Made by a program: the position numbers and the translations under genes. 64,000 nt of DNA, taken from the sequence record OL960577.1; one strand, written 5' to 3'. This document shows, piece after piece, positions 23,086 through 43,874 of the stretch (within the stretch, counting starts at the first letter, position 1; each line of letters starts with the position of its first letter). The stretch comes from Escherichia phage vB_EcoM_SA35RD. The notes under the pieces were generated by a model. That model was not told where the DNA came from. It ran no database searches and saw only the letters and a list, made by a program, of their open reading frames with translations.

Positions 23086-24075
23086 TTATTTATAGTAAGA
23101 ATTATGATTTTCGAGATAGACTTGCTCAAGGAAATCATCCCAGAAACTCATATCTACTTTTTGTTGCATACCATTCTTGGCAGCTTGTTCTGACGCATGT
23201 TCAACTTGGTCAACGATATCTTCTAGGAATTCTTGTACAGTTTTAAACGTATGTTTACCAAGCTTAACATCGAGAATAAATGGAGCATCCTGAAGTGGGT
23301 AAACCAGGTCGCCGGTTTTGTAAATTTCCAATAATTGAAGTCCACCACGACACGCATGACTCAATGCTTTCCAGTCAATACCTTCGTTAGCTTCTGCCTT
23401 ACGAGCACGTTCACCATAGTTCTCTTCCAGTTTAACCAAGATGGCATTGAACTCTTTATTGGTTAACGTGTCTTGGAATTTACGGTCTAACAGATTATAG
23501 AATGTTTGCTTACCTGTTTTCTCGTTTTCGGTTTCAACCCACGAAGCAAATTCACCTATAGGCAGAACATTCTTCATATGTGATAAACGAATTACTGCAC
23601 CGTTATCAAAGTATTGTCCCCATTCATTAGAACGTTTAAGGGCTTGACGAAGAACAGCCAGTCGAGAACCCTTGACACCATATTTAGAAGCTTGCTTACG
23701 GACGTACCCTAAATAAGATTTCATGTTAGTGGTATAGAAACGAGACCTGTTATCTTGAATATACTTCCATACATCAGGCAAATCAGATTTAACTACTAAA
23801 CTTTGTGGAGTGTGAAGCATATCTAATGCGACAGTTTCACCGTCCGCAGCTAGTTTAAAGAAATATTTGAGACTATACAACTCATGGTCCACGTCGTCTT
23901 TTGTGTTCTTAGAAGATGTGTTATTCGTGTTCTTGCTCATATGTTCTTTAACGTTACCGGTCAAGATATCACGAGCATGAGGGACATAAATTTCTTTAAA
24001 ATCAACGTCAGATTCTGGGGTAGACGTTCCATAAAGGTGGCTACCAAAGTAGCCTTTCATAATTGTTTTCATCAT
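23086..24075 (-). CDS. putative nucleotidyltransferase-fold protein (329 aa)
   Basis: N-terminal GSHLYGTSTPESDVDF fits the Pol-beta-superfamily G-S-x(9-13)-D-x-D motif; otherwise uncharacterised. Confidence 0.45.
   Translation of the reverse strand: MMKTIMKGYFGSHLYGTSTPESDVDFKEIYVPHARDILTGNVKEHMSKNTNNTSSKNTKDDVDHELYSLKYFFKLAADGETVALDMLHTPQSLVVKSDLPDVWKYIQDNRSRFYTTNMKSYLGYVRKQASKYGVKGSRLAVLRQALKRSNEWGQYFDNGAVIRLSHMKNVLPIGEFASWVETENEKTGKQTFYNLLDRKFQDTLTNKEFNAILVKLEENYGERARKAEANEGIDWKALSHACRGGLQLLEIYKTGDLVYPLQDAPFILDVKLGKHTFKTVQEFLEDIVDQVEHASEQAAKNGMQQKVDMSFWDDFLEQVYLENHNSYYK
23087..23094 (-). promoter_or_regulatory. late promoter TATAAATA upstream of secreted small protein
   Basis: Forward tatttata, about 33 nt upstream of start at 23054. 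Confidence 0.5.
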
Positions 24076-34528: not shown

Positions 34529-34769
34529 CTCGGTCCCATGATTTGGCCATTAATTCGGACATAAATTCTTCAATGCGCGTTTCTTTAGATGGACTTTCAC
34601 TATTAGAGACCGCAAGTTTGTAATCTGCAATAGGACAGAACATATCAAGATCCGTATTAAGGTCGTCTTTGATTTTTTCTTCTGACACATCTTTATCGTA
34701 TGTGTACAGATAACTATCACATGATTCTGATTTAATGTAAATTGCTATACTCATCTCAAATTCCTGCAT
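34518..34769 (-). CDS. hypothetical acidic protein (83 aa)
   Basis: Track ORF. Confidence 0.45.
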   Translation of the reverse strand: MQEFEMSIAIYIKSESCDSYLYTYDKDVSEEKIKDDLNTDLDMFCPIADYKLAVSNSESPSKETRIEEFMSELMAKSWDRDDE

Positions 34770-35242
34770 TCAGTAATAAAACATTCAACTTCGTTATTCT
34801 TGGCCTTTATCTTGTCTTTACGTTCCTGTAAACTACTTTTAACAAGATTAATAATGATGCCTACAGTACCTCCACCAATTATACCGCCAATTATACTTAC
34901 GATAGCAGATGCTAATAAGATAGCAATAATATCAACAAAACCGAAAGAACTCACCTTAGTACTAAAAAACCATACCGACGGTACAAATATAATCCATCCT
35001 GTTATCCATTGGCACTTATTGAAAAACTTTTCAAGATCAGCTTGAGTTGTTCGTATTACTTCATCGATAGGTTGATATCCATTAATGTATCTGTTCACGA
35101 TAATACCTGCTGGTTTGTCGATTTTAAATTCTTGGCAAATACGTTTCACTAAGTAGGATGGACATCCTGTCCAATCCACTGAATAGTACGAAATACCTTC
35201 ATTGCCGTCGTCAATATTAGACCAATATGTTTTGTTAATCAT
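34751..35242 (-). CDS. hypothetical membrane protein (163 aa), C-terminal ECFITECR tail
   Basis: Hydrophobic spans with GGIIGGG motif. Confidence 0.5.
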   Translation of the reverse strand: MINKTYWSNIDDGNEGISYYSVDWTGCPSYLVKRICQEFKIDKPAGIIVNRYINGYQPIDEVIRTTQADLEKFFNKCQWITGWIIFVPSVWFFSTKVSSFGFVDIIAILLASAIVSIIGGIIGGGTVGIIINLVKSSLQERKDKIKAKNNEVECFITECRNLR

Positions 35243-35929: not shown

Positions 35930-36235
35930 TTATTTTCCTCGACATTCTTTAATGAAATTTTCTAGATTGGTAGATTCAATAGCTTTTTTACGAGCTTCTG
36001 CGTGTTCTTCTTCGGACAATTTACGTTTATAATTGACCCAGACATTATGGTCGAAACCAGTCGTGGCATATAATAACAATGCTCCAACGAATAGCAAAAA
36101 CGGCGATAAGAATACAAAACCAGGAACACCATCCATATCGTAAGCCTTTTGTAATACTGCAACAGAAAGAGTTGCGTAAAAAGGTGATGCAAGTATTGTT
36201 AAAAGACCAATTCGATTGGTTTCTGTTAATTTCAT
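35930..36235 (-). CDS. hypothetical membrane protein (101 aa), C-terminal ENFIKECR tail
   Basis: Two hydrophobic spans. Confidence 0.5.
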   Translation of the reverse strand: MKLTETNRIGLLTILASPFYATLSVAVLQKAYDMDGVPGFVFLSPFLLFVGALLLYATTGFDHNVWVNYKRKLSEEEHAEARKKAIESTNLENFIKECRGK

Positions 36236-36266
36236 AATATTCTCCTCATGTTTTAATAGGACTACT

Positions 36267-36296
36267 ACTATAACATAGTCCTATCAGTTTGTACAC
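36267..36296 (-). promoter_or_regulatory. early promoter cassette (-35 GTGTAC, -10 TATAGT) with TAGGACTA inverted repeat
   Basis: Read directly. Confidence 0.5.
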
Positions 36297-36497
36297 TTAT
36301 TTTGACATTTCTTCGATGTCACGACGATACCCATCACGAACTTCACGAAGAGCTTCAAGGCCACACATAGGCTCGATACCAGTAATGTGAACTTGATTAA
36401 TCTGATACTCTACATCTTCTAACTGAGCGAAAACATAACGACGTTCTGCTGCACAACCAGGTTTAGCTTTACCGAAACGTTTATTCAAAGTAGTCAT
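36297..36497 (-). CDS. hypothetical protein (about 66 aa)
   Basis: Track ORF 36297..36515 uses GTG; ATG at 36497 follows GGAGAT RBS. Confidence 0.45.
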   Translation of the reverse strand: MTTLNKRFGKAKPGCAAERRYVFAQLEDVEYQINQVHITGIEPMCGLEALREVRDGYRRDIEEMSK

Positions 36498-36535
36498 TTT
36501 TATATCTCCATTCACTCATTTGTTTTGATAGGTCT

Positions 36536-36565
36536 ATAGTATCAACAACTACAGACCTTGTAAAC
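36536..36565 (-). promoter_or_regulatory. early promoter cassette (-35 GTTTAC, -10 TACTAT)
   Basis: Read directly. Confidence 0.5.
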
Positions 36566-36577
36566 TGTTTTGTGAAA

Positions 36578-37534
36578 TTATTTGAAAGGTTTTACCATAT
36601 GAAAGTTTTGTTTGAAACGCTTGACGTAATCGTCGTGTCCTAAGCTTTGGTACATACTTACTACTTTGCTATAATTTTCCCAAGCGAACTCACGGAACCA
36701 TCCTGATGTGATTGATGTACAGACCTTTTCAAGGGCCATCATAAAACTATCACGTGGATGGATTTTAAAGTCGTTAGGAATCTGAGAACGTTCTAATGCT
36801 AGTACACATGATTCTTCATATACACCGGCCAATTTGACCATTTCTGGTAATGATTCGAACTTCTCGCGTGAGGTCATGACTTCAGAACCATCTTTCATGT
36901 AAAATGTATAAGCCGGACGGTCTGTTAGTGCAATAGCTTCGTGAATAGTATCATGGTCATATGTATAGATGTCATCTTTAAAGAACGCACTTTTAGAAGT
37001 GTCAAGAACAGGGTGAGCATAGTTCAAGGTTTCTTTCTGGCGTTTCAGCATAATTTCAGTAAGTTCATCGTTCAGTTTAACACCTTTACCACGAAGATAC
37101 TGAATATGGTTCATAGTCTTTAAAAAGAATGGATTATTTTTCTTGAAACGATGAGACATCTTAATTGCAAGACATATCTCAGGAGTTGCCCAGTAAAACC
37201 CGTTCAAACGGTCTTTAGTCAAATTTTTCTTGGCGTATTTTAAAAGGTCATAAGAAGACGTGAAATCTTCAGGAGTGAGTTCACCGACTAATTCACGGAC
37301 ACTAGTGATTGCCGGAACAATATATGCTTCAAAATGAGTTTCGCGTCCATTATGGAAGCATTTGAAAACTTGGACATCAGGGTTATCTTGGTGAACATAT
37401 ACACCCATCATTTGATTTTTGAATGCATTCCAAGAACCTTGGTCCGCAATAAAGTCCCAATCACTATTTTTAATAGCGCTAGAATCAATAAGACCGTGAT
37501 AGTGAAGTGCACGAGAACCAATAACTAACATCAT
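36578..37534 (-). CDS. hypothetical protein (318 aa), possible nucleotidyltransferase-like N-terminus
   Basis: VIGSRALHYHGLIDSSAIKNSDWDF loosely fits GS...D-x-D; weak. Confidence 0.45.
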   Translation of the reverse strand: MMLVIGSRALHYHGLIDSSAIKNSDWDFIADQGSWNAFKNQMMGVYVHQDNPDVQVFKCFHNGRETHFEAYIVPAITSVRELVGELTPEDFTSSYDLLKYAKKNLTKDRLNGFYWATPEICLAIKMSHRFKKNNPFFLKTMNHIQYLRGKGVKLNDELTEIMLKRQKETLNYAHPVLDTSKSAFFKDDIYTYDHDTIHEAIALTDRPAYTFYMKDGSEVMTSREKFESLPEMVKLAGVYEESCVLALERSQIPNDFKIHPRDSFMMALEKVCTSITSGWFREFAWENYSKVVSMYQSLGHDDYVKRFKQNFHMVKPFK

Positions 37535-37562: not shown

Positions 37563-37814
37563 TTAAATTTCACGACATGCGATATTATATTCATCCCAGA
37601 GGTCATCATGTGAAGCCTCTACCAATGGAACGATTGTACCGTTTATGTCTTCATTATAAGGGCAAATTGTACAGTGCGCATCTTCGAATCGGATGCCTTT
37701 GTGTTCAGATTTTTTATAACGCATATCGAATATCTTTGCAAACTTTTCACGAGTAATGGTTTTACCAACCACTTTGGTTCCGATACTTTCGTAATAAATC
37801 ATTGTGGACTCCAT
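37563..37814 (-). CDS. hypothetical Cys/His-containing protein (about 80 aa)
   Basis: HCTICPYNED motif; start 37814 or 37802. Confidence 0.45.
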   Translation of the reverse strand: MESTMIYYESIGTKVVGKTITREKFAKIFDMRYKKSEHKGIRFEDAHCTICPYNEDINGTIVPLVEASHDDLWDEYNIACREI

Positions 37815-37830
37815 TTGTTTTGATAGGACT

Positions 37831-37860
37831 ACTATAACATAGCCCTATCTTGTTGTAAAC
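37831..37860 (-). promoter_or_regulatory. early promoter cassette (-35 GTTTAC, -10 TATAGT)
   Basis: Read directly. Confidence 0.5.
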
Positions 37861-37864
37861 TGTT

Positions 37865-38062
37865 TTAGCAAGAATAACTAGATGATACCCAGCCTTGAAC
37901 AGTGATACTATTGTGGGATAATGAGATCGCGTCCTGGAGATTCAGACCTGCGTTATCTTCAATCCATAATGTAACTTCTTCGCGTTCTTCTGTTGCAATT
38001 TGGAACAGGTTTTCCAGAGCAGCTACTGCCGTACGTACAGCACAATCTAATTCACGAGACAT
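37865..38062 (-). CDS. hypothetical protein (65 aa), GWVSSSxxC-tail family
   Basis: Ends QGWVSSSYSC. Confidence 0.45.
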   Translation of the reverse strand: MSRELDCAVRTAVAALENLFQIATEEREEVTLWIEDNAGLNLQDAISLSHNSITVQGWVSSSYSC

Positions 38063-38071
38063 ATTGTTTCC

Positions 38072-38344
38072 TTAGCAAGTGTGAGAAGATGCGACCCAAC
38101 CACCAGTTTCGAGGCTCAGGTTGTAGTCGTATTGGTAAACGTCAGCCCATTCAGCATAGCCATTTTTTGTACAACGTTCAAGATCGGCTTTAAGATGTCC
38201 GGGTGAATGATAGGTTCCACCCATACCGTAAGCTGGATACAAGTCGAATGTTGTGTTTTGTTTATCAGCAATTTCTTTGGCAGCCTCAATAGCTGCATAG
38301 ATTTTTGCTACAGCTTCAGCCAGTTCGGTTTGTTCTTTAGACAT
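38072..38344 (-). CDS. hypothetical protein (90 aa), GWVSSSxxC-tail family
   Basis: Ends GGWVASSHTC. Confidence 0.45.
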   Translation of the reverse strand: MSKEQTELAEAVAKIYAAIEAAKEIADKQNTTFDLYPAYGMGGTYHSPGHLKADLERCTKNGYAEWADVYQYDYNLSLETGGWVASSHTC

Positions 38345-38353
38345 AATGATTCC

Positions 38354-38659
38354 TTAGCACAACGCAGAAGACGAAACCCAAGCACCTTCAGTAATAACGT
38401 AACCATTACCTTCACGCTTAACATCGCCACCATTATTTTCAATTTCATCTTTCATCCACTGGGATACGATTTCACCCTTAGGATAATAAGTACGACCGCT
38501 ACCATAATCACCTACAGAAAATGATACGGCATATTGGTCTGCGATCTTTGTTGCTTCTTCTTCGATACGTTCAGCTTGATTCAGAAGTTTATAAATTGCA
38601 TCTGAAGCGGATTTGGCATTATTAAACTCTGGTACTTTAATTTCAATAATCTTACTCAT
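38354..38659 (-). CDS. hypothetical protein (101 aa), GWVSSSxxC-tail family
   Basis: Ends EGAWVSSSALC. Confidence 0.45.
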   Translation of the reverse strand: MSKIIEIKVPEFNNAKSASDAIYKLLNQAERIEEEATKIADQYAVSFSVGDYGSGRTYYPKGEIVSQWMKDEIENNGGDVKREGNGYVITEGAWVSSSALC

Positions 38660-39015
38660 TTTCTACATTCCTTAATAAAGTTTTCGATTGTTTCATTTTC
38701 ACGTCTAGCTAGGAGTTCATTATAACTAATCATTTGAGAAGCGTAAACCTTTTTATTTTTCTTGTTATGGTTTATAAAATCGTAGTAAAAATAGACTACA
38801 GTACAAAATGATGCGATGGATGCAAAGGCTTGGGTATACCGTAAGTCCTGCCATTGGTCTGTGAATCCACCAGTGTTCCCTATAAATCCTAACACAACGC
38901 CGTCAATAAGAAATCCAACTAATCCAAAGGCAAATCCCATGCCAATACTCATAATAAAAATTAGAATGTTCTCACCAAGAGAAGGCCATACGGTTAAGAG
39001 TTGAGGCTTTTGCAT
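38656..39015 (-). CDS. hypothetical membrane protein (119 aa), C-terminal ENFIKECRK tail
   Basis: Two or three hydrophobic spans. Confidence 0.5.
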   Translation of the reverse strand: MQKPQLLTVWPSLGENILIFIMSIGMGFAFGLVGFLIDGVVLGFIGNTGGFTDQWQDLRYTQAFASIASFCTVVYFYYDFINHNKKNKKVYASQMISYNELLARRENETIENFIKECRK

Positions 39016-39419
39016 CTTATTTCCTTAACGAATTCCATAGCTTCTTCATATTCATACTTTTTAATAGCTTCATCATACTGAGCTTGGGCTTTTGCGCACT
39101 GAACTTTCCATTCTCTTAATCGGGCTCTGTGATGACGGCCTTGGTGCCAATATCCCACCCAATTAATAGGCATTAATAAAAACGGTACAATAAGTGGTGC
39201 GACGAACATTAATGAAAATGCTGCATCAGACGATATAACTTCACTAGAATCTAAAACAGCTCCTATAATCATAAAGATTAAAAATGCTAAAGCTAAAATA
39301 GGGCCAAATAGTACTTCATTTGGGATTAATTTACGCTTGTATTCATACGCCCAGGGCTTACTTGGCATGTATAGGGTTGGCTTTGACATATTCTCTACAT
39401 TCCATAATAAATTGCTCAA
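38994..39419 (-). CDS. hypothetical membrane protein (about 131-141 aa), C-terminal EFVKEIRCK tail
   Basis: Hydrophobic spans; start ambiguous (39419 or 39389). Confidence 0.45.
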   Translation of the reverse strand: MSNLLWNVENMSKPTLYMPSKPWAYEYKRKLIPNEVLFGPILALAFLIFMIIGAVLDSSEVISSDAAFSLMFVAPLIVPFLLMPINWVGYWHQGRHHRARLREWKVQCAKAQAQYDEAIKKYEYEEAMEFVKEIRCKSLNS

Positions 39420-39975
39420 GGATTAAATTGTTAGTGAAATTAGGACTAACAACCATAGTTTCATAAAGCGCATCAATAGCACTTAAAGCATCAACTCTTT
39501 TAAGCAAAGGCTTGCCTTCATACATAGTTTCAGAATCGACGATTAAAGTGAAGTAGTATTTTTTATTATTGGCCAGAACTTCTGTATCAATATAAAACAT
39601 GTTAGACCTTAAAAGCTTGTCTCTAAAGCCTACGTAATCATCTGAACGTTCACTGATATATTCCCATTCGGTGTTTAAACAACAAACAGACCACGTAGGA
39701 GCAACGAAATCAGTGAATCTAATATCATGGTCTGCAACTAGTTTAGCAATAGCTCCGATATCATGAATCATAATACCTGGGGCTAATAAAGATTTTCGGT
39801 TATTTGCATATTCAGTTGTCTCATAAGAAGACGACCAGTACCATTTACGTCCAGTTGCAACATATCGTAATGAATCAACTAAAGACGTAGGTGGATTTAC
39901 CTTATCTCGGAACTCTTCGAACATTGAGTCAATATCATTATTTTGGTTTCGCATGTTAACTCCTTTATTATCCAA
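39358..39975 (-). CDS. hypothetical protein (205 aa), C-terminal EQFIMECR motif
   Basis: Track ORF. Confidence 0.5.
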   Translation of the reverse strand: MDNKGVNMRNQNNDIDSMFEEFRDKVNPPTSLVDSLRYVATGRKWYWSSSYETTEYANNRKSLLAPGIMIHDIGAIAKLVADHDIRFTDFVAPTWSVCCLNTEWEYISERSDDYVGFRDKLLRSNMFYIDTEVLANNKKYYFTLIVDSETMYEGKPLLKRVDALSAIDALYETMVVSPNFTNNLILEQFIMECREYVKANPIHAK

Positions 39976-40919: not shown

Positions 40920-40945
40920 TGTTTTCCTCATTTGTTGGTGGAGTA

Positions 40946-40974
40946 ATCATATCACCATCCTTGGCGTTTGTACA
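40946..40974 (-). promoter_or_regulatory. early promoter cassette (-35 TGTACA, 17 nt, -10 TATGAT) with CACCA-agga-TGG hairpin
   Basis: Read directly. Confidence 0.45.
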
Positions 40975-41202
40975 TTATTTTTTAATCAAGTTGACATAAA
41001 ATTCTGCATCTTCAGGGTGCATGCCTTCGCAGTATTCTTCAACCATGAACTTCTTAACAGCTTCATAAGGACCACTCAGATTAAGCTCAGTTGTCCAGAA
41101 CTTGGAATCTTGGACTGAATCGATATGAACTTCAGGGTGTCGGTTGCGAATAACTTCTTCGGTGTATTCATAATCAACGACATCAATACTAACTTTAGCC
41201 AT
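40975..41202 (-). CDS. hypothetical protein (75 aa)
   Basis: Track ORF. Confidence 0.45.
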   Translation of the reverse strand: MAKVSIDVVDYEYTEEVIRNRHPEVHIDSVQDSKFWTTELNLSGPYEAVKKFMVEEYCEGMHPEDAEFYVNLIKK

Positions 41203-41443
41203 TTTATTTTCCTCTTGATTTGATGTGATTACTATAACATAAACTTACTTAGATGTAAATTATTTCAACGTCACCTTTAGCTGCTTTATAACCTTCAGCC
41301 CAAGATACAACAGAGTTTTTATCCGAGGATTCAAATTCAGGCATTGGACTTTCACCAATATTCACACAGTATGTTTCTTCATTTTCATCGAACCAAATAA
41401 TTAAAGTAGTCATTTTGTTTACTCCTCTGTAGTTGATAAGTCT

Positions 41444-41472
41444 ATAGTATCACCATCCTTGGTGCTTGTACA
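41444..41472 (-). promoter_or_regulatory. early promoter cassette (-35 TGTACA, 17 nt, -10 TACTAT) with CACCA-agga-TGGTG hairpin
   Basis: Read directly; a short ORF (about 40-50 codons, roughly 41290..41413) follows. Confidence 0.45.
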
Positions 41473-41480
41473 TCATTATT

Positions 41481-41786
41481 TTATTTTTTCCAACTCAACA
41501 ACTTGTAATGTCCTTCATTCGTACGTGGTTTATCCCAAGAAATACTAATATATGATTCGCTGTCAATAGAAGTCGCCGGGTTTTTCTCTACCGTAAGACC
41601 TTCACTTTCCAGCCATTCAATAGTATTTGCGCATAAATCGGAAGAACACCTCATCGGGAACCGGCAAGATTTTTCACCTTTAGATGCTGCATCGTACATC
41701 TTTTCCAAAATACGCTTTTGCACGTTTTTAAAAATAGTTTCAGCAGATTCTTCAGATTTTTTATTCAGTTCAGTGTAAAGACTCAT
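41481..41786 (-). CDS. hypothetical protein (101 aa)
   Basis: Track ORF. Confidence 0.45.
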   Translation of the reverse strand: MSLYTELNKKSEESAETIFKNVQKRILEKMYDAASKGEKSCRFPMRCSSDLCANTIEWLESEGLTVEKNPATSIDSESYISISWDKPRTNEGHYKLLSWKK

Positions 41787-41814
41787 AACATTTTCCTCTA
41801 TGGTTGATAAGTCT

Positions 41815-41843
41815 ATAGTATCATGTCCTTAGAAGAAGTAAAC
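41815..41843 (-). promoter_or_regulatory. early promoter cassette (-35 GTTTAC, 17 nt, -10 TACTAT)
   Basis: Read directly. Confidence 0.5.
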
Positions 41844-41875
41844 ATCTTTATGAAATATTTTTATGCCCTAGATAC

Positions 41876-41905
41876 CAAAAGGCCCCAACCATAAGGAAGG
41901 GGCAT
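41876..41905 (-). terminator. rho-independent terminator, copy 2 of repeated hairpin element
   Basis: Same GCCCC...GGGGC hairpin plus T-run as 26156..26185. Confidence 0.55.
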
Positions 41906-42374: not shown

Positions 42375-42420
42375 GTTGCTTTTCCTAAGTTAATTAACTT
42401 ATCTATTTATTATTATGCCA

Positions 42421-42450
42421 AAAAGCCCCGACCTTTCGGAAGGGGCTAAG
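42421..42450 (-). terminator. rho-independent terminator, copy 3 (variant loop)
   Basis: Minus strand AGCCCC-TTCCGAAAGGTC-GGGGCT then TTTT. Confidence 0.55.
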
Positions 42451-43122: not shown

Positions 43123-43199
<77 letters not shown>

Positions 43200-43205
43200 A
43201 ATATA

Positions 43206-43279
43206 TGACCCAGACCAGATTCGAACTGGTAACCTTTCCCTTATGAGGGGACTGCTGCTAACCATTGAGCTACAGGGCC
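43206..43279 (-). tRNA. tRNA with CAU anticodon (Ile2/AUA-decoding or Met)
   Basis: Acceptor GGCCCTG/CTGGGTC (one U-U mismatch), anticodon loop CTCATAA, T-arm ACCAG-TTCGAAT-CTGGT; 3-bp D-stem. Confidence 0.6.
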
Positions 43280-43358: not shown

Positions 43359-43874
43359 TTAAAGCAAATCAATCATTTTAACAGTCGGCAAAACGATTTC
43401 TTCTTCAATATAAGCGAATTCAACACGTTCAACTACACGCAAGAAATCATAGTCGTAGTATTCAGAAGCATAGCCAAGAATATCAATAAGGCCTTTGGAT
43501 ACCTCATCACCTTTCACAAAGAACAGGTCGAATACACGGGCTTCGTCTTCTTCAGATTTATCGCCAAGGTCAACTTCAATACCAAAGACCTTTTTAATGA
43601 ATTCCGGCTGGAGCTGGTCAGAGAACAGTCCTTCAACCAGATATTCGTAGATAATAAGCGAGCAACGACCGAATGGCGTATTACCACAGTAACGTTCGGC
43701 TTTAGTGCTGGAATGACGACTCTTAAATTTCTTCAAGAGATATTTAAACTGTTGGAGCTCATGCTCTTCTACACCAAATAATGTTTTGGTTTTATAGTTG
43801 TCACCGTCATTTTCCCAAGTAGTGACATCAATTACGTAACCCTTAGGAATTGTACTGCCTAAACAAATATTCAT
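43359..43874 (-). CDS. hypothetical protein (171 aa)
   Basis: Track ORF. Confidence 0.5.
   Translation of the reverse strand: MNICLGSTIPKGYVIDVTTWENDGDNYKTKTLFGVEEHELQQFKYLLKKFKSRHSSTKAERYCGNTPFGRCSLIIYEYLVEGLFSDQLQPEFIKKVFGIEVDLGDKSEEDEARVFDLFFVKGDEVSKGLIDILGYASEYYDYDFLRVVERVEFAYIEEEIVLPTVKMIDLL

Follow-up and report, generated by a model that had tools for sequence, protein, structure and literature searches.

A Mosigvirus accessory gene encodes a predicted nucleotidyltransferase of Pol-beta/DUF1814 type with a novel C-terminal module

In a stretch of 64,000 nucleotides from Escherichia phage vB_EcoM_SA35RD (sequence record OL960577.1; "the window" hereafter means this whole stretch), an open reading frame (ORF) on the minus strand at 36578..37534 encodes a protein of 318 amino acids (aa). 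This protein is a form of the Pol-beta/DUF1814 nucleotidyltransferases (NTases) that is specific to viruses and has a novel C-terminal module, and it has no recognised place in any characterised family. We put at about 75% the probability that it is an active enzyme of this type, a figure that leaves the acceptor out of account. We consider it well supported that the protein has the NTase fold, that its catalytic site is intact and that its closest kin are the DUF1814 superfamily. The ORF begins with ATG (N-terminus MMLVIGSRALHYHGLIDSSAIKNSDWDF) in a T4-like phage of the genus Mosigvirus, whose closest deposited relative, phage phiC120, carries an ortholog 99% identical. It is a genuine, widely conserved phage gene: a Pfam scan finds DUF7277 followed by DUF7275, in that order (cut-off 27 bits each), and the protein belongs to PHROG 2141 (E 1.5e-150). 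We found no paper naming DUF7275, DUF7277, PF23940 or PF23942. The features of the gene are as follows.

36578..37534, minus strand: coding sequence of the predicted two-lobed NTase (ORF listing, DUF7277 and DUF7275, PHROG 2141, AlphaFold2 model)
37546-37541, minus strand: Shine-Dalgarno sequence GAGGAA, 6 nt 5' of the ATG, read from the sequence
aa 2-101: DUF7277 (Pfam, 97.3 bits, E 8.7e-28)
aa 120-305: DUF7275 (Pfam, 267.4 bits, E 9.3e-80)
37223..37534 (aa 1-104), minus strand: N-terminal domain, predicted Pol-beta-type NTase core plus two helices (AlphaFold2, Foldseek)
37454..37519, minus strand: catalytic signature G6-S7 ... D25-x-D27 (GSRALHYHGLIDSSAIKNSDWD), 96-99% conserved in 268 homologs
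37328..37330, minus strand: codon of E69, predicted third metal-binding carboxylate, on strand 5 (alignment and model)
36965..37189 (aa ~116-190), minus strand: first helical lobe, with invariant K125, H128 and K139 and near-invariant T140 and R165
36581..36964 (aa ~191-318), minus strand: family-specific C-terminal helical module, with invariant H194, D195, H198, E240, E241, E248 and R249

An earlier note, made from the sequence alone, had proposed an NTase-like protein on the strength of the GS...DxD opening of this ORF, for which it gave no strand, and had named structure prediction as a check. The AlphaFold2 model of the full protein, built on a 53-sequence alignment, has a mean predicted local distance difference test score (pLDDT) of 93.2 and a predicted template modelling score (pTM) of 0.87, and its N-terminal domain shows NTase topology, an outcome that favours the proposal. 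Residues 1-75 follow the order beta-alpha-beta-alpha-beta-beta-beta, with strands at 2-5, 26-31, 45-47, 54-61 and 64-73 and helices at 6-12 and 32-41; the core is succeeded by helices 75-82 and 93-104. This layout of strands and helices, together with three metal-binding carboxylates, is that of the Pol-beta nucleotidyltransferase core, in which the G-S loop and the carboxylates hold two Mg2+ ions and the triphosphate of the nucleoside triphosphate (NTP). In the model, V-I-G6-S7 lies at the junction of strand 2-5 and helix 6-12, as the hG[GS] motif requires, and D25-W-D27-F provides the [DE]h[DE]h motif at strand 26-31, the second strand. A third carboxylate is predicted in F-E69-A, within strand 64-73, the last of the core.

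Comparison of the full-length model with the PDB by Foldseek points in the same direction, since every high-probability match is an NTase of the Pol-beta superfamily. The best is Pb27 (5uvd; E 1.4e-3, probability 1.0, 223 columns), followed by MenT1 (8an4; E 5.7e-3, probability 1.0, template modelling score (TM) 0.48 on MenT1, 185 columns, root-mean-square deviation (rmsd) 5.8 A). TM1012 aligns over 82 columns (rmsd 3.6 A), and Cid1, Pol X, Pol mu and CCA-adding enzymes appear further down. With 185-223 columns, the MenT1 and Pb27 alignments extend beyond the N-terminal domain. Taken alone, these matches between a model and known NTases would be suggestive but not conclusive, and the one to MenT1 falls short of a confident match at the level of the fold.

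Conservation of the catalytic positions adds a second line of evidence. In an alignment of 268 homologs (31-98% identity to the query, median 47%), G6, D25 and D27 are each conserved at 99% and S7 at 96%, and position 69 is acidic in 265 sequences (Glu in 249, Asp in 16). Only G6, S7, A9, D25 and D27 reach at least 95% in the N-terminal domain, where the mean frequency of the top residue is 0.50, against 0.63 in the helical domain. The h-h-h-G-S ... D-x-D start is kept in versions of 252-264 aa from Streptomyces, Gordonia and Vibrio phages as well as in the 317-aa version of an Acinetobacter phage. The conserved His and Asp residues that the earlier note had suspected downstream are indeed there: H128, H194, D195 and H198 are 100% conserved, together with K125, K139, E240, E241, E248 and R249. 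Position 143 is Asp in most homologs and His in the window protein.

On its own, the GS...DxD pattern is weak evidence because it is frequent by chance. Scored as G[SG]-x(8-20)-D-x-[DE] among the 71 non-overlapping ORFs of at least 100 aa in the window, it occurs within the first 45 aa of five, lysozyme among them, and shuffled versions of the NTase protein contain it anywhere in 12% of cases, a share that drops to 1.2% when only the first 45 aa are counted. What takes the motif beyond chance is that the catalytic positions are conserved while the N-terminal domain otherwise varies. Another ORF, 43359-43874 on the minus strand, adjoining tRNA genes, also opens with a GS...D-G-D pattern (GSTIPKGYVIDVTTWENDGD); the pattern being so common, this is probably a chance occurrence.

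A third line of evidence comes from divergent relatives. The DUF1814 superfamily includes MenT1-4, AbiEii, Pb27, ANT(2'')-Ia and JHP933 (bioRxiv 10.64898/2026.01.19.700257). Starting from the short versions of the protein in actinophages and vibriophages, we carried out a bridge search in which four short-subfamily homologs scored above the Pfam AbiEii (PF08843) cut-off of 22.5 bits, at 24.5-32.7 bits (E 1e-7 to 3e-5). The best, P0403, reaches 32.7 bits (E 9.6e-8) and the three others 24.5-26.7 bits. In these short-subfamily members the match spans exactly the GS...DxD segment (profile positions 19-44). P0403 shows a second, co-linear stretch, weak (E 0.013), in which profile positions 128-210 of 238 align with the start of DUF7275 and which takes in the invariant K-x-S-H motif, K125 and K139. 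A weak match to the NTase family DUF2204 was also found in the Pfam scan of homologs. The two top fold matches and the sole Pfam NTase hit above threshold therefore indicate the same superfamily, DUF1814. At the level of sequence, the AbiEii link runs through the homologs of the window protein and not through its own sequence. In the records of Pseudomonas phage REC and Acinetobacter phage AM101, the depositors have independently labelled homologs as nucleotidyltransferases. The fold assignment was thus partly foreseen by two GenBank depositors, and the AbiEii/MenT link, the orphan module and the short-subfamily partner described below are new leads.

These results bear on the possibility that the protein is no such enzyme, the GS...DxD pattern being a chance match or the protein a pseudo-enzyme with a structural or binding role. 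The five ORFs out of 71 with the pattern, the lack of any NTase model matching the window protein and the marginal Foldseek scores could be read in this way. However, the motif residues are nearly the sole invariants of the N-terminal domain in sequences down to 31% identity, which would be unexpected for a pseudo-enzyme; the predicted topology puts them at canonical positions, and the independent AbiEii matches in homologs land on the same segment. We regard this explanation as very improbable.

The helical part of the protein appears to be composite. The first helical lobe is a candidate counterpart of the C-lobe of DUF1814 enzymes. Near residue 190 the resemblance to AbiEii seems to stop, leaving a family-specific module of ~130 residues without a solved relative, which carries the loop C-T-S-I-T-S-G-W-F-R. 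Residues 100-318, modelled separately, are all-helical (pLDDT 94.2), and the search of this model against the PDB with Foldseek gave no meaningful match, the best being the TRFH domain of TRF1 (E 0.29, probability 0.16, TM <0.2); the sole NTase listed was Pb27, weak, at rank 39 (probability 0.30). Judging by the model, this module, in which the most invariant residues of the family lie, seems to have a new fold.

DUF7275 might alternatively be a second catalytic centre, a metal-dependent phosphoesterase that would make the protein bifunctional in the manner of NTase-plus-HD proteins such as the bacterial CCA-adding enzyme and GlnD. This would be compatible with an NTase activity of the core. 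The invariant H128, H194-D195, H198, E240, E241 and E248 resemble a metal-binding constellation in an all-helical domain, and the higher conservation of the helical domain noted above (0.63 versus 0.50) would suit it. On the other hand, the confident model of the C-terminal domain finds no HD or other hydrolase fold with Foldseek, searches of Pfam, NCBIfam and PDB sequences return only a sub-threshold HisJ match (E 0.013), and the invariant residues could equally line the acceptor site of the NTase; we think a second centre improbable. An HD-type hydrolase in particular was rejected as an assignment for this domain, since the H128...H194-D195...E240 pattern is present but neither Foldseek nor Pfam gives an HD match.

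The family is viral in its distribution. It is present in 732 of 50,697 phage records (~1.4%), from T4-like phages that infect many hosts to Phapecoctavirus, Otagovirus, actinophages and vibriophages, and forms 1,612 clusters at 50% identity; the ~300-aa architecture is uniform among the 150 best matches listed. A cellular origin was rejected: one-genome-per-species bacterial and archaeal assemblies (185,579 species genomes) yielded five loci, all in metagenome-assembled genomes, one of them on a 167-kb contig, and the actinobacterial chromosomal copies lie in prophage-like replication modules. Indeed, these copies adjoin genes for a PDDEXK nuclease, helicase/primase, endonuclease VII, ribonucleotide reductase (RNR) and ThyX and genes of mycobacteriophage type, and are therefore prophages. 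Matches of the two-domain fold in BFVD to proteins named "DUF7275 domain-containing" (A0A3G5AJ90 of Sylvanvirus, 508 aa, and A0A3G5AE53 of Satyrvirus, 571 aa; TM 0.68-0.69) apparently place the family in giant viruses of eukaryotes as well, by the metagenomic labels of these entries, with phage contamination possible. Some NTase homologs (in PV204681.1 and PP693301.1, and protein P0007) are misannotated, the labels used being "major capsid protein", "baseplate hub subunit" and "prohead assembly scaffold protein".

We propose that the core would bind NTP through its G-S loop and D25, D27 and E69, the residue set that holds two Mg2+ in the superfamily, and would transfer a nucleoside monophosphate from the NTP onto a hydroxyl acceptor in a Mg2+-dependent manner. 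The acceptor may sit where the NTase core faces the helical lobes, and would be specified by the unique C-terminal module. Phages of Proteobacteria, Actinomycetota and Vibrio share the same invariant helical residues with prophages and, apparently, with giant viruses, which makes a universal acceptor likelier; from this comparison of sequences, a universal nucleic acid or nucleotide is more likely than a host-specific protein. Both MenT and AbiEii extend tRNA 3' ends (PMC7450476, PMC10435456), and by analogy an RNA 3'-OH would be our best single guess, a tentative one. A fuller picture, in which an AbiEii/MenT branch belonging to large phages and, apparently, to giant viruses supplies an early enzyme that extends the 3' ends of tRNA or other RNA for takeover or counter-defence, the new fold of DUF7275 picking the substrate and the short subfamily working as a two-component system with its dedicated and sometimes fused ~100-aa partner, is more speculative and, as a whole, doubtful.

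Within the same superfamily, ANT(2'')-Ia offers another precedent, that of a small-molecule O-nucleotidyltransferase acting on a metabolite, a cofactor or an antibiotic-like compound. The deeply conserved C-terminal module could form a pocket for such a molecule, and several lineages have neighbours belonging to the metabolism of nucleotides or NAD, which resemble NAMPT, ThyX, RNR or Sir2 in sequence, or an annotated NudE. Nevertheless, no aminoglycoside NTase appears among the Foldseek matches, the surroundings of the gene show no conserved operon for a particular metabolic pathway, and modification of the antibiotic type would be without obvious use to a phage; of the acceptors considered here, this is the one we find hardest to credit.

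To place the gene in context across viruses, we surveyed the neighbours of 136 viral loci in 23 NTase lineages, 10 of the long (window-type) subfamily and 13 of the short one. In the short subfamily, a protein of ~100 aa is encoded immediately downstream in 12 of the 13 lineages, in one to four tandem copies (loci L095-L150, L007, L013 and L014; for example L013:8770-9087 and L005:3630-3968). It belongs to PHROGs 13591/18295/8206 and to no Pfam family, and has the consensus ..GGEG.GE..Y.VF......FK....Y.SY.G...DG...EV.P..KT.T.Y. In five loci of four lineages (L141_0, L149_10, L146_6/L147_6 and L148_11) it is fused to the C-terminus of the NTase, which is a Rosetta-stone type of link. This partner has no counterpart in any of the 10 window-type lineages. 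Two further ideas were discarded. That of a "split NTase", with the partner as the missing beta3-beta5 half of the core, gave an hhalign probability of 0.2%, equal to that of a reversed-sequence control; that of the tandem W[VI]SSS..C genes of the window as counterparts of the partner gave 1.5%. An adjacent cognate antitoxin is common, but not universal, in the AbiEii/DUF1814 family (PMC7450476). No AbiEi/COG5340 or MenA-type antitoxin neighbour was found in the 10 long-subfamily lineages, by Pfam among the ORFs flanking the gene in the window (which gave no match) or by PADLOC.

The partner raises the question of a protein substrate. Minimal NTases include protein adenylyltransferases. The enzyme might nucleotidylate (for example AMPylate) itself, a protein of the phage, or one of the host's defence or toxin proteins, in the way that MntA modifies HepT. 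DUF1814 toxins are known to auto-phosphorylate (PMC11375011), and the ~100-aa protein of the short subfamily (12 of 13 lineages, fused in four) would fit a dedicated substrate or regulator. Its absence from all 10 long-subfamily lineages speaks against this, however, as does the absence of any match of antitoxin type in PADLOC, and the identical invariant C-domain residues across very different hosts disfavour a host-specific target. We consider a protein substrate unlikely.

The window holds a second NTase-fold protein, as the earlier note had supposed, and the match of the 318-aa ORF is, as it also said, the weaker of the two. ORF 23086-24075 on the minus strand is a Pol-beta NTase of the Pfam family RlaP (PF10127; E 5.8e-13), whereas no Pfam NTase model hits the 318-aa ORF. 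Phage NTases that make cyclic dinucleotides are reported to have the signature GS-x-AY[GAN]T-x4-SDxD, with NP-x-h2[DE] ~60 residues further on (bioRxiv 10.1101/2022.06.09.495361), and the segment GSHLYGTSTPESDVD of ORF 23086-24075 fits the first of these motifs except for Leu in place of Ala. Many GenBank homologs of this ORF are mislabelled "thioredoxin". We rejected the 318-aa protein as a member of the same family as the RlaP ORF or as the cyclic-dinucleotide-making phage NTases, on the grounds of absent sequence similarity and different motif spacing; the hyperplastic region of the window thus carries two unrelated NTases.

The comparison with these enzymes also bears on the idea that the 318-aa protein produces a signal or a decoy derived from nucleotides, for example a cyclic dinucleotide or oligonucleotide, against nucleotide-sensing immunity of the host. 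There is precedent in the MNT-like NTases of Bacillus phage BCP1 and of Enterobacteriophage Av05, which are reported to make 3'3'-cGAMP and c-di-AMP and to inhibit TIR-STING (bioRxiv 10.1101/2022.06.09.495361). The gene is probably early and stands among accessory genes, and the invariant basic residues together with the Ser/Thr/Gly loop of the C-terminal domain would suit the binding of a second nucleotide. Both signature motifs, however, fit ORF 23086-24075 and not the 318-aa ORF, in which 17 residues separate GS from DxD; the two window NTases have no detectable similarity, and the closest structural and profile relatives of the 318-aa protein are DUF1814 enzymes rather than CD-NTases or MNTs. 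Such a role is, in our view, somewhat less likely than action on a protein.

Several results weigh against our assignment of the protein to an active DUF1814-like NTase that acts on a nucleic acid. No NTase sequence model in Pfam, NCBIfam or the PDB matches the window protein: PF08843 matches neither it nor any of the 53 members of the long-subfamily alignment, even at E <=10, and no NTase Pfam family recurs among these 53; phmmer and the family profile against PDB sequences gave a spurious PsaB match only, the NCBIfam scan only the sub-threshold HisJ-family match (E 0.013) mentioned above, and PADLOC no defence or antitoxin-type match. The Foldseek scores are modest, none with E <0.001 and TM at most 0.48. 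The AbiEii bridge consists mainly of a motif segment of ~26 residues in divergent homologs, the second stretch having an E of 0.013. Known DUF1814 acceptors are diverse (tRNA, aminoglycoside), so that the tRNA analogy is weak. The long subfamily has no conserved partner or neighbour in its 10 lineages, tRNA genes lie near the NTase in just three of 13 loci, and a ligase or Pnkp is found within 5 kb in just seven of 23 lineages, too weak an association for a link to RNA or DNA repair.

In the window, the NTase gene is accessory cargo, with the lysozyme gene e and nudE as a pair on one side and, on the other, two tRNA genes at 43123-43279. T4 has only the small genes e.2-e.8 in the corresponding interval and no homolog at that syntenic site, so the label "hyperplastic region" used in the earlier note fits. 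The elements around the gene, all on the minus strand, include the following.

37563..37814: 83-aa ORF, PHROG 3723 (E 1.7e-36), 5' of the NTase gene with a 28-nt gap
37810..37865: PeSL-like cassette, 5' of the two-gene unit, with TTTACA-17-TATAGT and TG, an 11-bp stem and repeat D1
36515..36570: PeSL-like cassette, directly 3' of the NTase stop codon and serving the next gene, with repeats D1 and D3
36246-36301, 40925-40986, 41210-41265, 41423-41484 and 41794-41823: further PeSL-like cassettes

The promoter scan and repeat search found no promoter-like cassette between the 83-aa ORF and the NTase gene, and from their arrangement the two are probably co-transcribed. The seven aligned cassettes are intergenic, ~56-62 nt long and confined to the hyperplastic region. 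Their layout comprises an AT-rich leader, GTTTACA, a stem-loop, a TATAGT-like -10, a Shine-Dalgarno sequence and the start codon of the gene that follows. As in PeSL elements, each contains a stem, here of 11-12 bp, with folding z-scores of -2.6 to -4.7 (-16 kcal/mol and z -3.0 for 37810..37865; -20.1 kcal/mol and z -4.7 for 36515..36570, whose promoter-like site is at 36564-36536). The published promoter consensus of PeSL in PST/T4 is TTTACW-N17-TAYWAT (PMC4122927), and the window cassettes are like the PeSL cassettes of T4-type hyperplastic regions in repeating an intergenic promoter, stem-loop and Shine-Dalgarno sequence (PMC2839356, PMC4122927). They differ in that the stem-loop overlaps the spacer and the -10, whereas the published one lies just upstream of the promoter. 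Cassettes 37810-37865 and 36515-36570 flank the 83-aa ORF and the NTase gene, which would suggest early transcription and a module that can be shuffled. The NTase is probably expressed early, with the 83-aa ORF, from the sigma70-like promoter of the upstream cassette.

Other repeats were observed nearby. Three tandem paralogs of 65, 90 and 101 aa (37865-38062, 38072-38344 and 38354-38659, minus strand) have the C-terminal ending W-[VI]-[SA]-S-S-x-x-C in common and belong to PHROG 899, a family that recurs 5' of the NTase in T4-like loci. Five small ORFs on the minus strand (34751-35242, 35930-36235, 38656-39015, 38994-39419 and 39358-39975), several with hydrophobic stretches resembling membrane segments, have a common C-terminal peptide in the versions NFIKECRGK, NFIKECRK, FVKEIRCK, FITECRNLR and FIMECREY. 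A degenerate DNA pattern for this peptide has three matches versus 0.57 expected, and the peptide could be the end of a common domain or else a recombination joint. A GC-rich repeat that resembles a hairpin occurs twice (41872-41903 and 42415-42446; AAAGGCCCC...GGGGC; D11), between small genes upstream of the tRNA cluster; the two copies are possibly terminators.

The family is among the larger uncharacterised protein families of big phages and is represented in Pfam by two DUFs only. Its kinship with AbiEii/MenT leads to a concrete hypothesis, the NTP-dependent modification of an RNA end or another universal acceptor, and raises the issue of viruses carrying a relative of a bacterial anti-phage toxin. 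The small partner, adjacent or fused in the short subfamily, provides an experimental handle on function.

Among known systems, class II CCA-adding enzymes and Cid1 have the NTase core fold in common with the window protein and use RNA 3'-OH acceptors, but the fold-match probabilities are 0.08-0.33 with TM ~0.17, and these enzymes, of much greater size, have neck, body and tail domains that are absent from the window protein. RlaP-type phage NTases (PF10127) are likewise minimal Pol-beta NTases that phages encode and whose C-terminal part is helical, and differ in having GS-x-AY[GAN]T-x4-SDxD where the 318-aa ORF has GS-x17-DxD; the latter has no PF10127 match and another C-terminal domain. 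Pb27 of Paracoccidioides brasiliensis, a DUF1814 protein with no assigned function, is the best fold match in the PDB, at 13% identity, rmsd 10 A and TM 0.30-0.40; it is fungal, has 218 aa and lacks the C-terminal module. In the toxins, motifs III and IV contribute a catalytic Lys and Asp, K137 and D152 in MenT1 and K189 and D211 in MenT3. The catalytic residues described for MenT are T39, D41, K137 and D152 (PMC10435456). MenT1, with 195 aa, is without the extra ~130-residue module. The window protein further differs from the AbiEii/MenT toxins (PF08843) in being encoded by a virus, in having no PF08843 match and in having neither an antitoxin of AbiEi/MenA type nor a conserved neighbour; what it appears to have in common with them is the bi-lobed plan, a Pol-beta core with GS and DxD followed by a helical lobe, which in the toxins carries an essential Lys.

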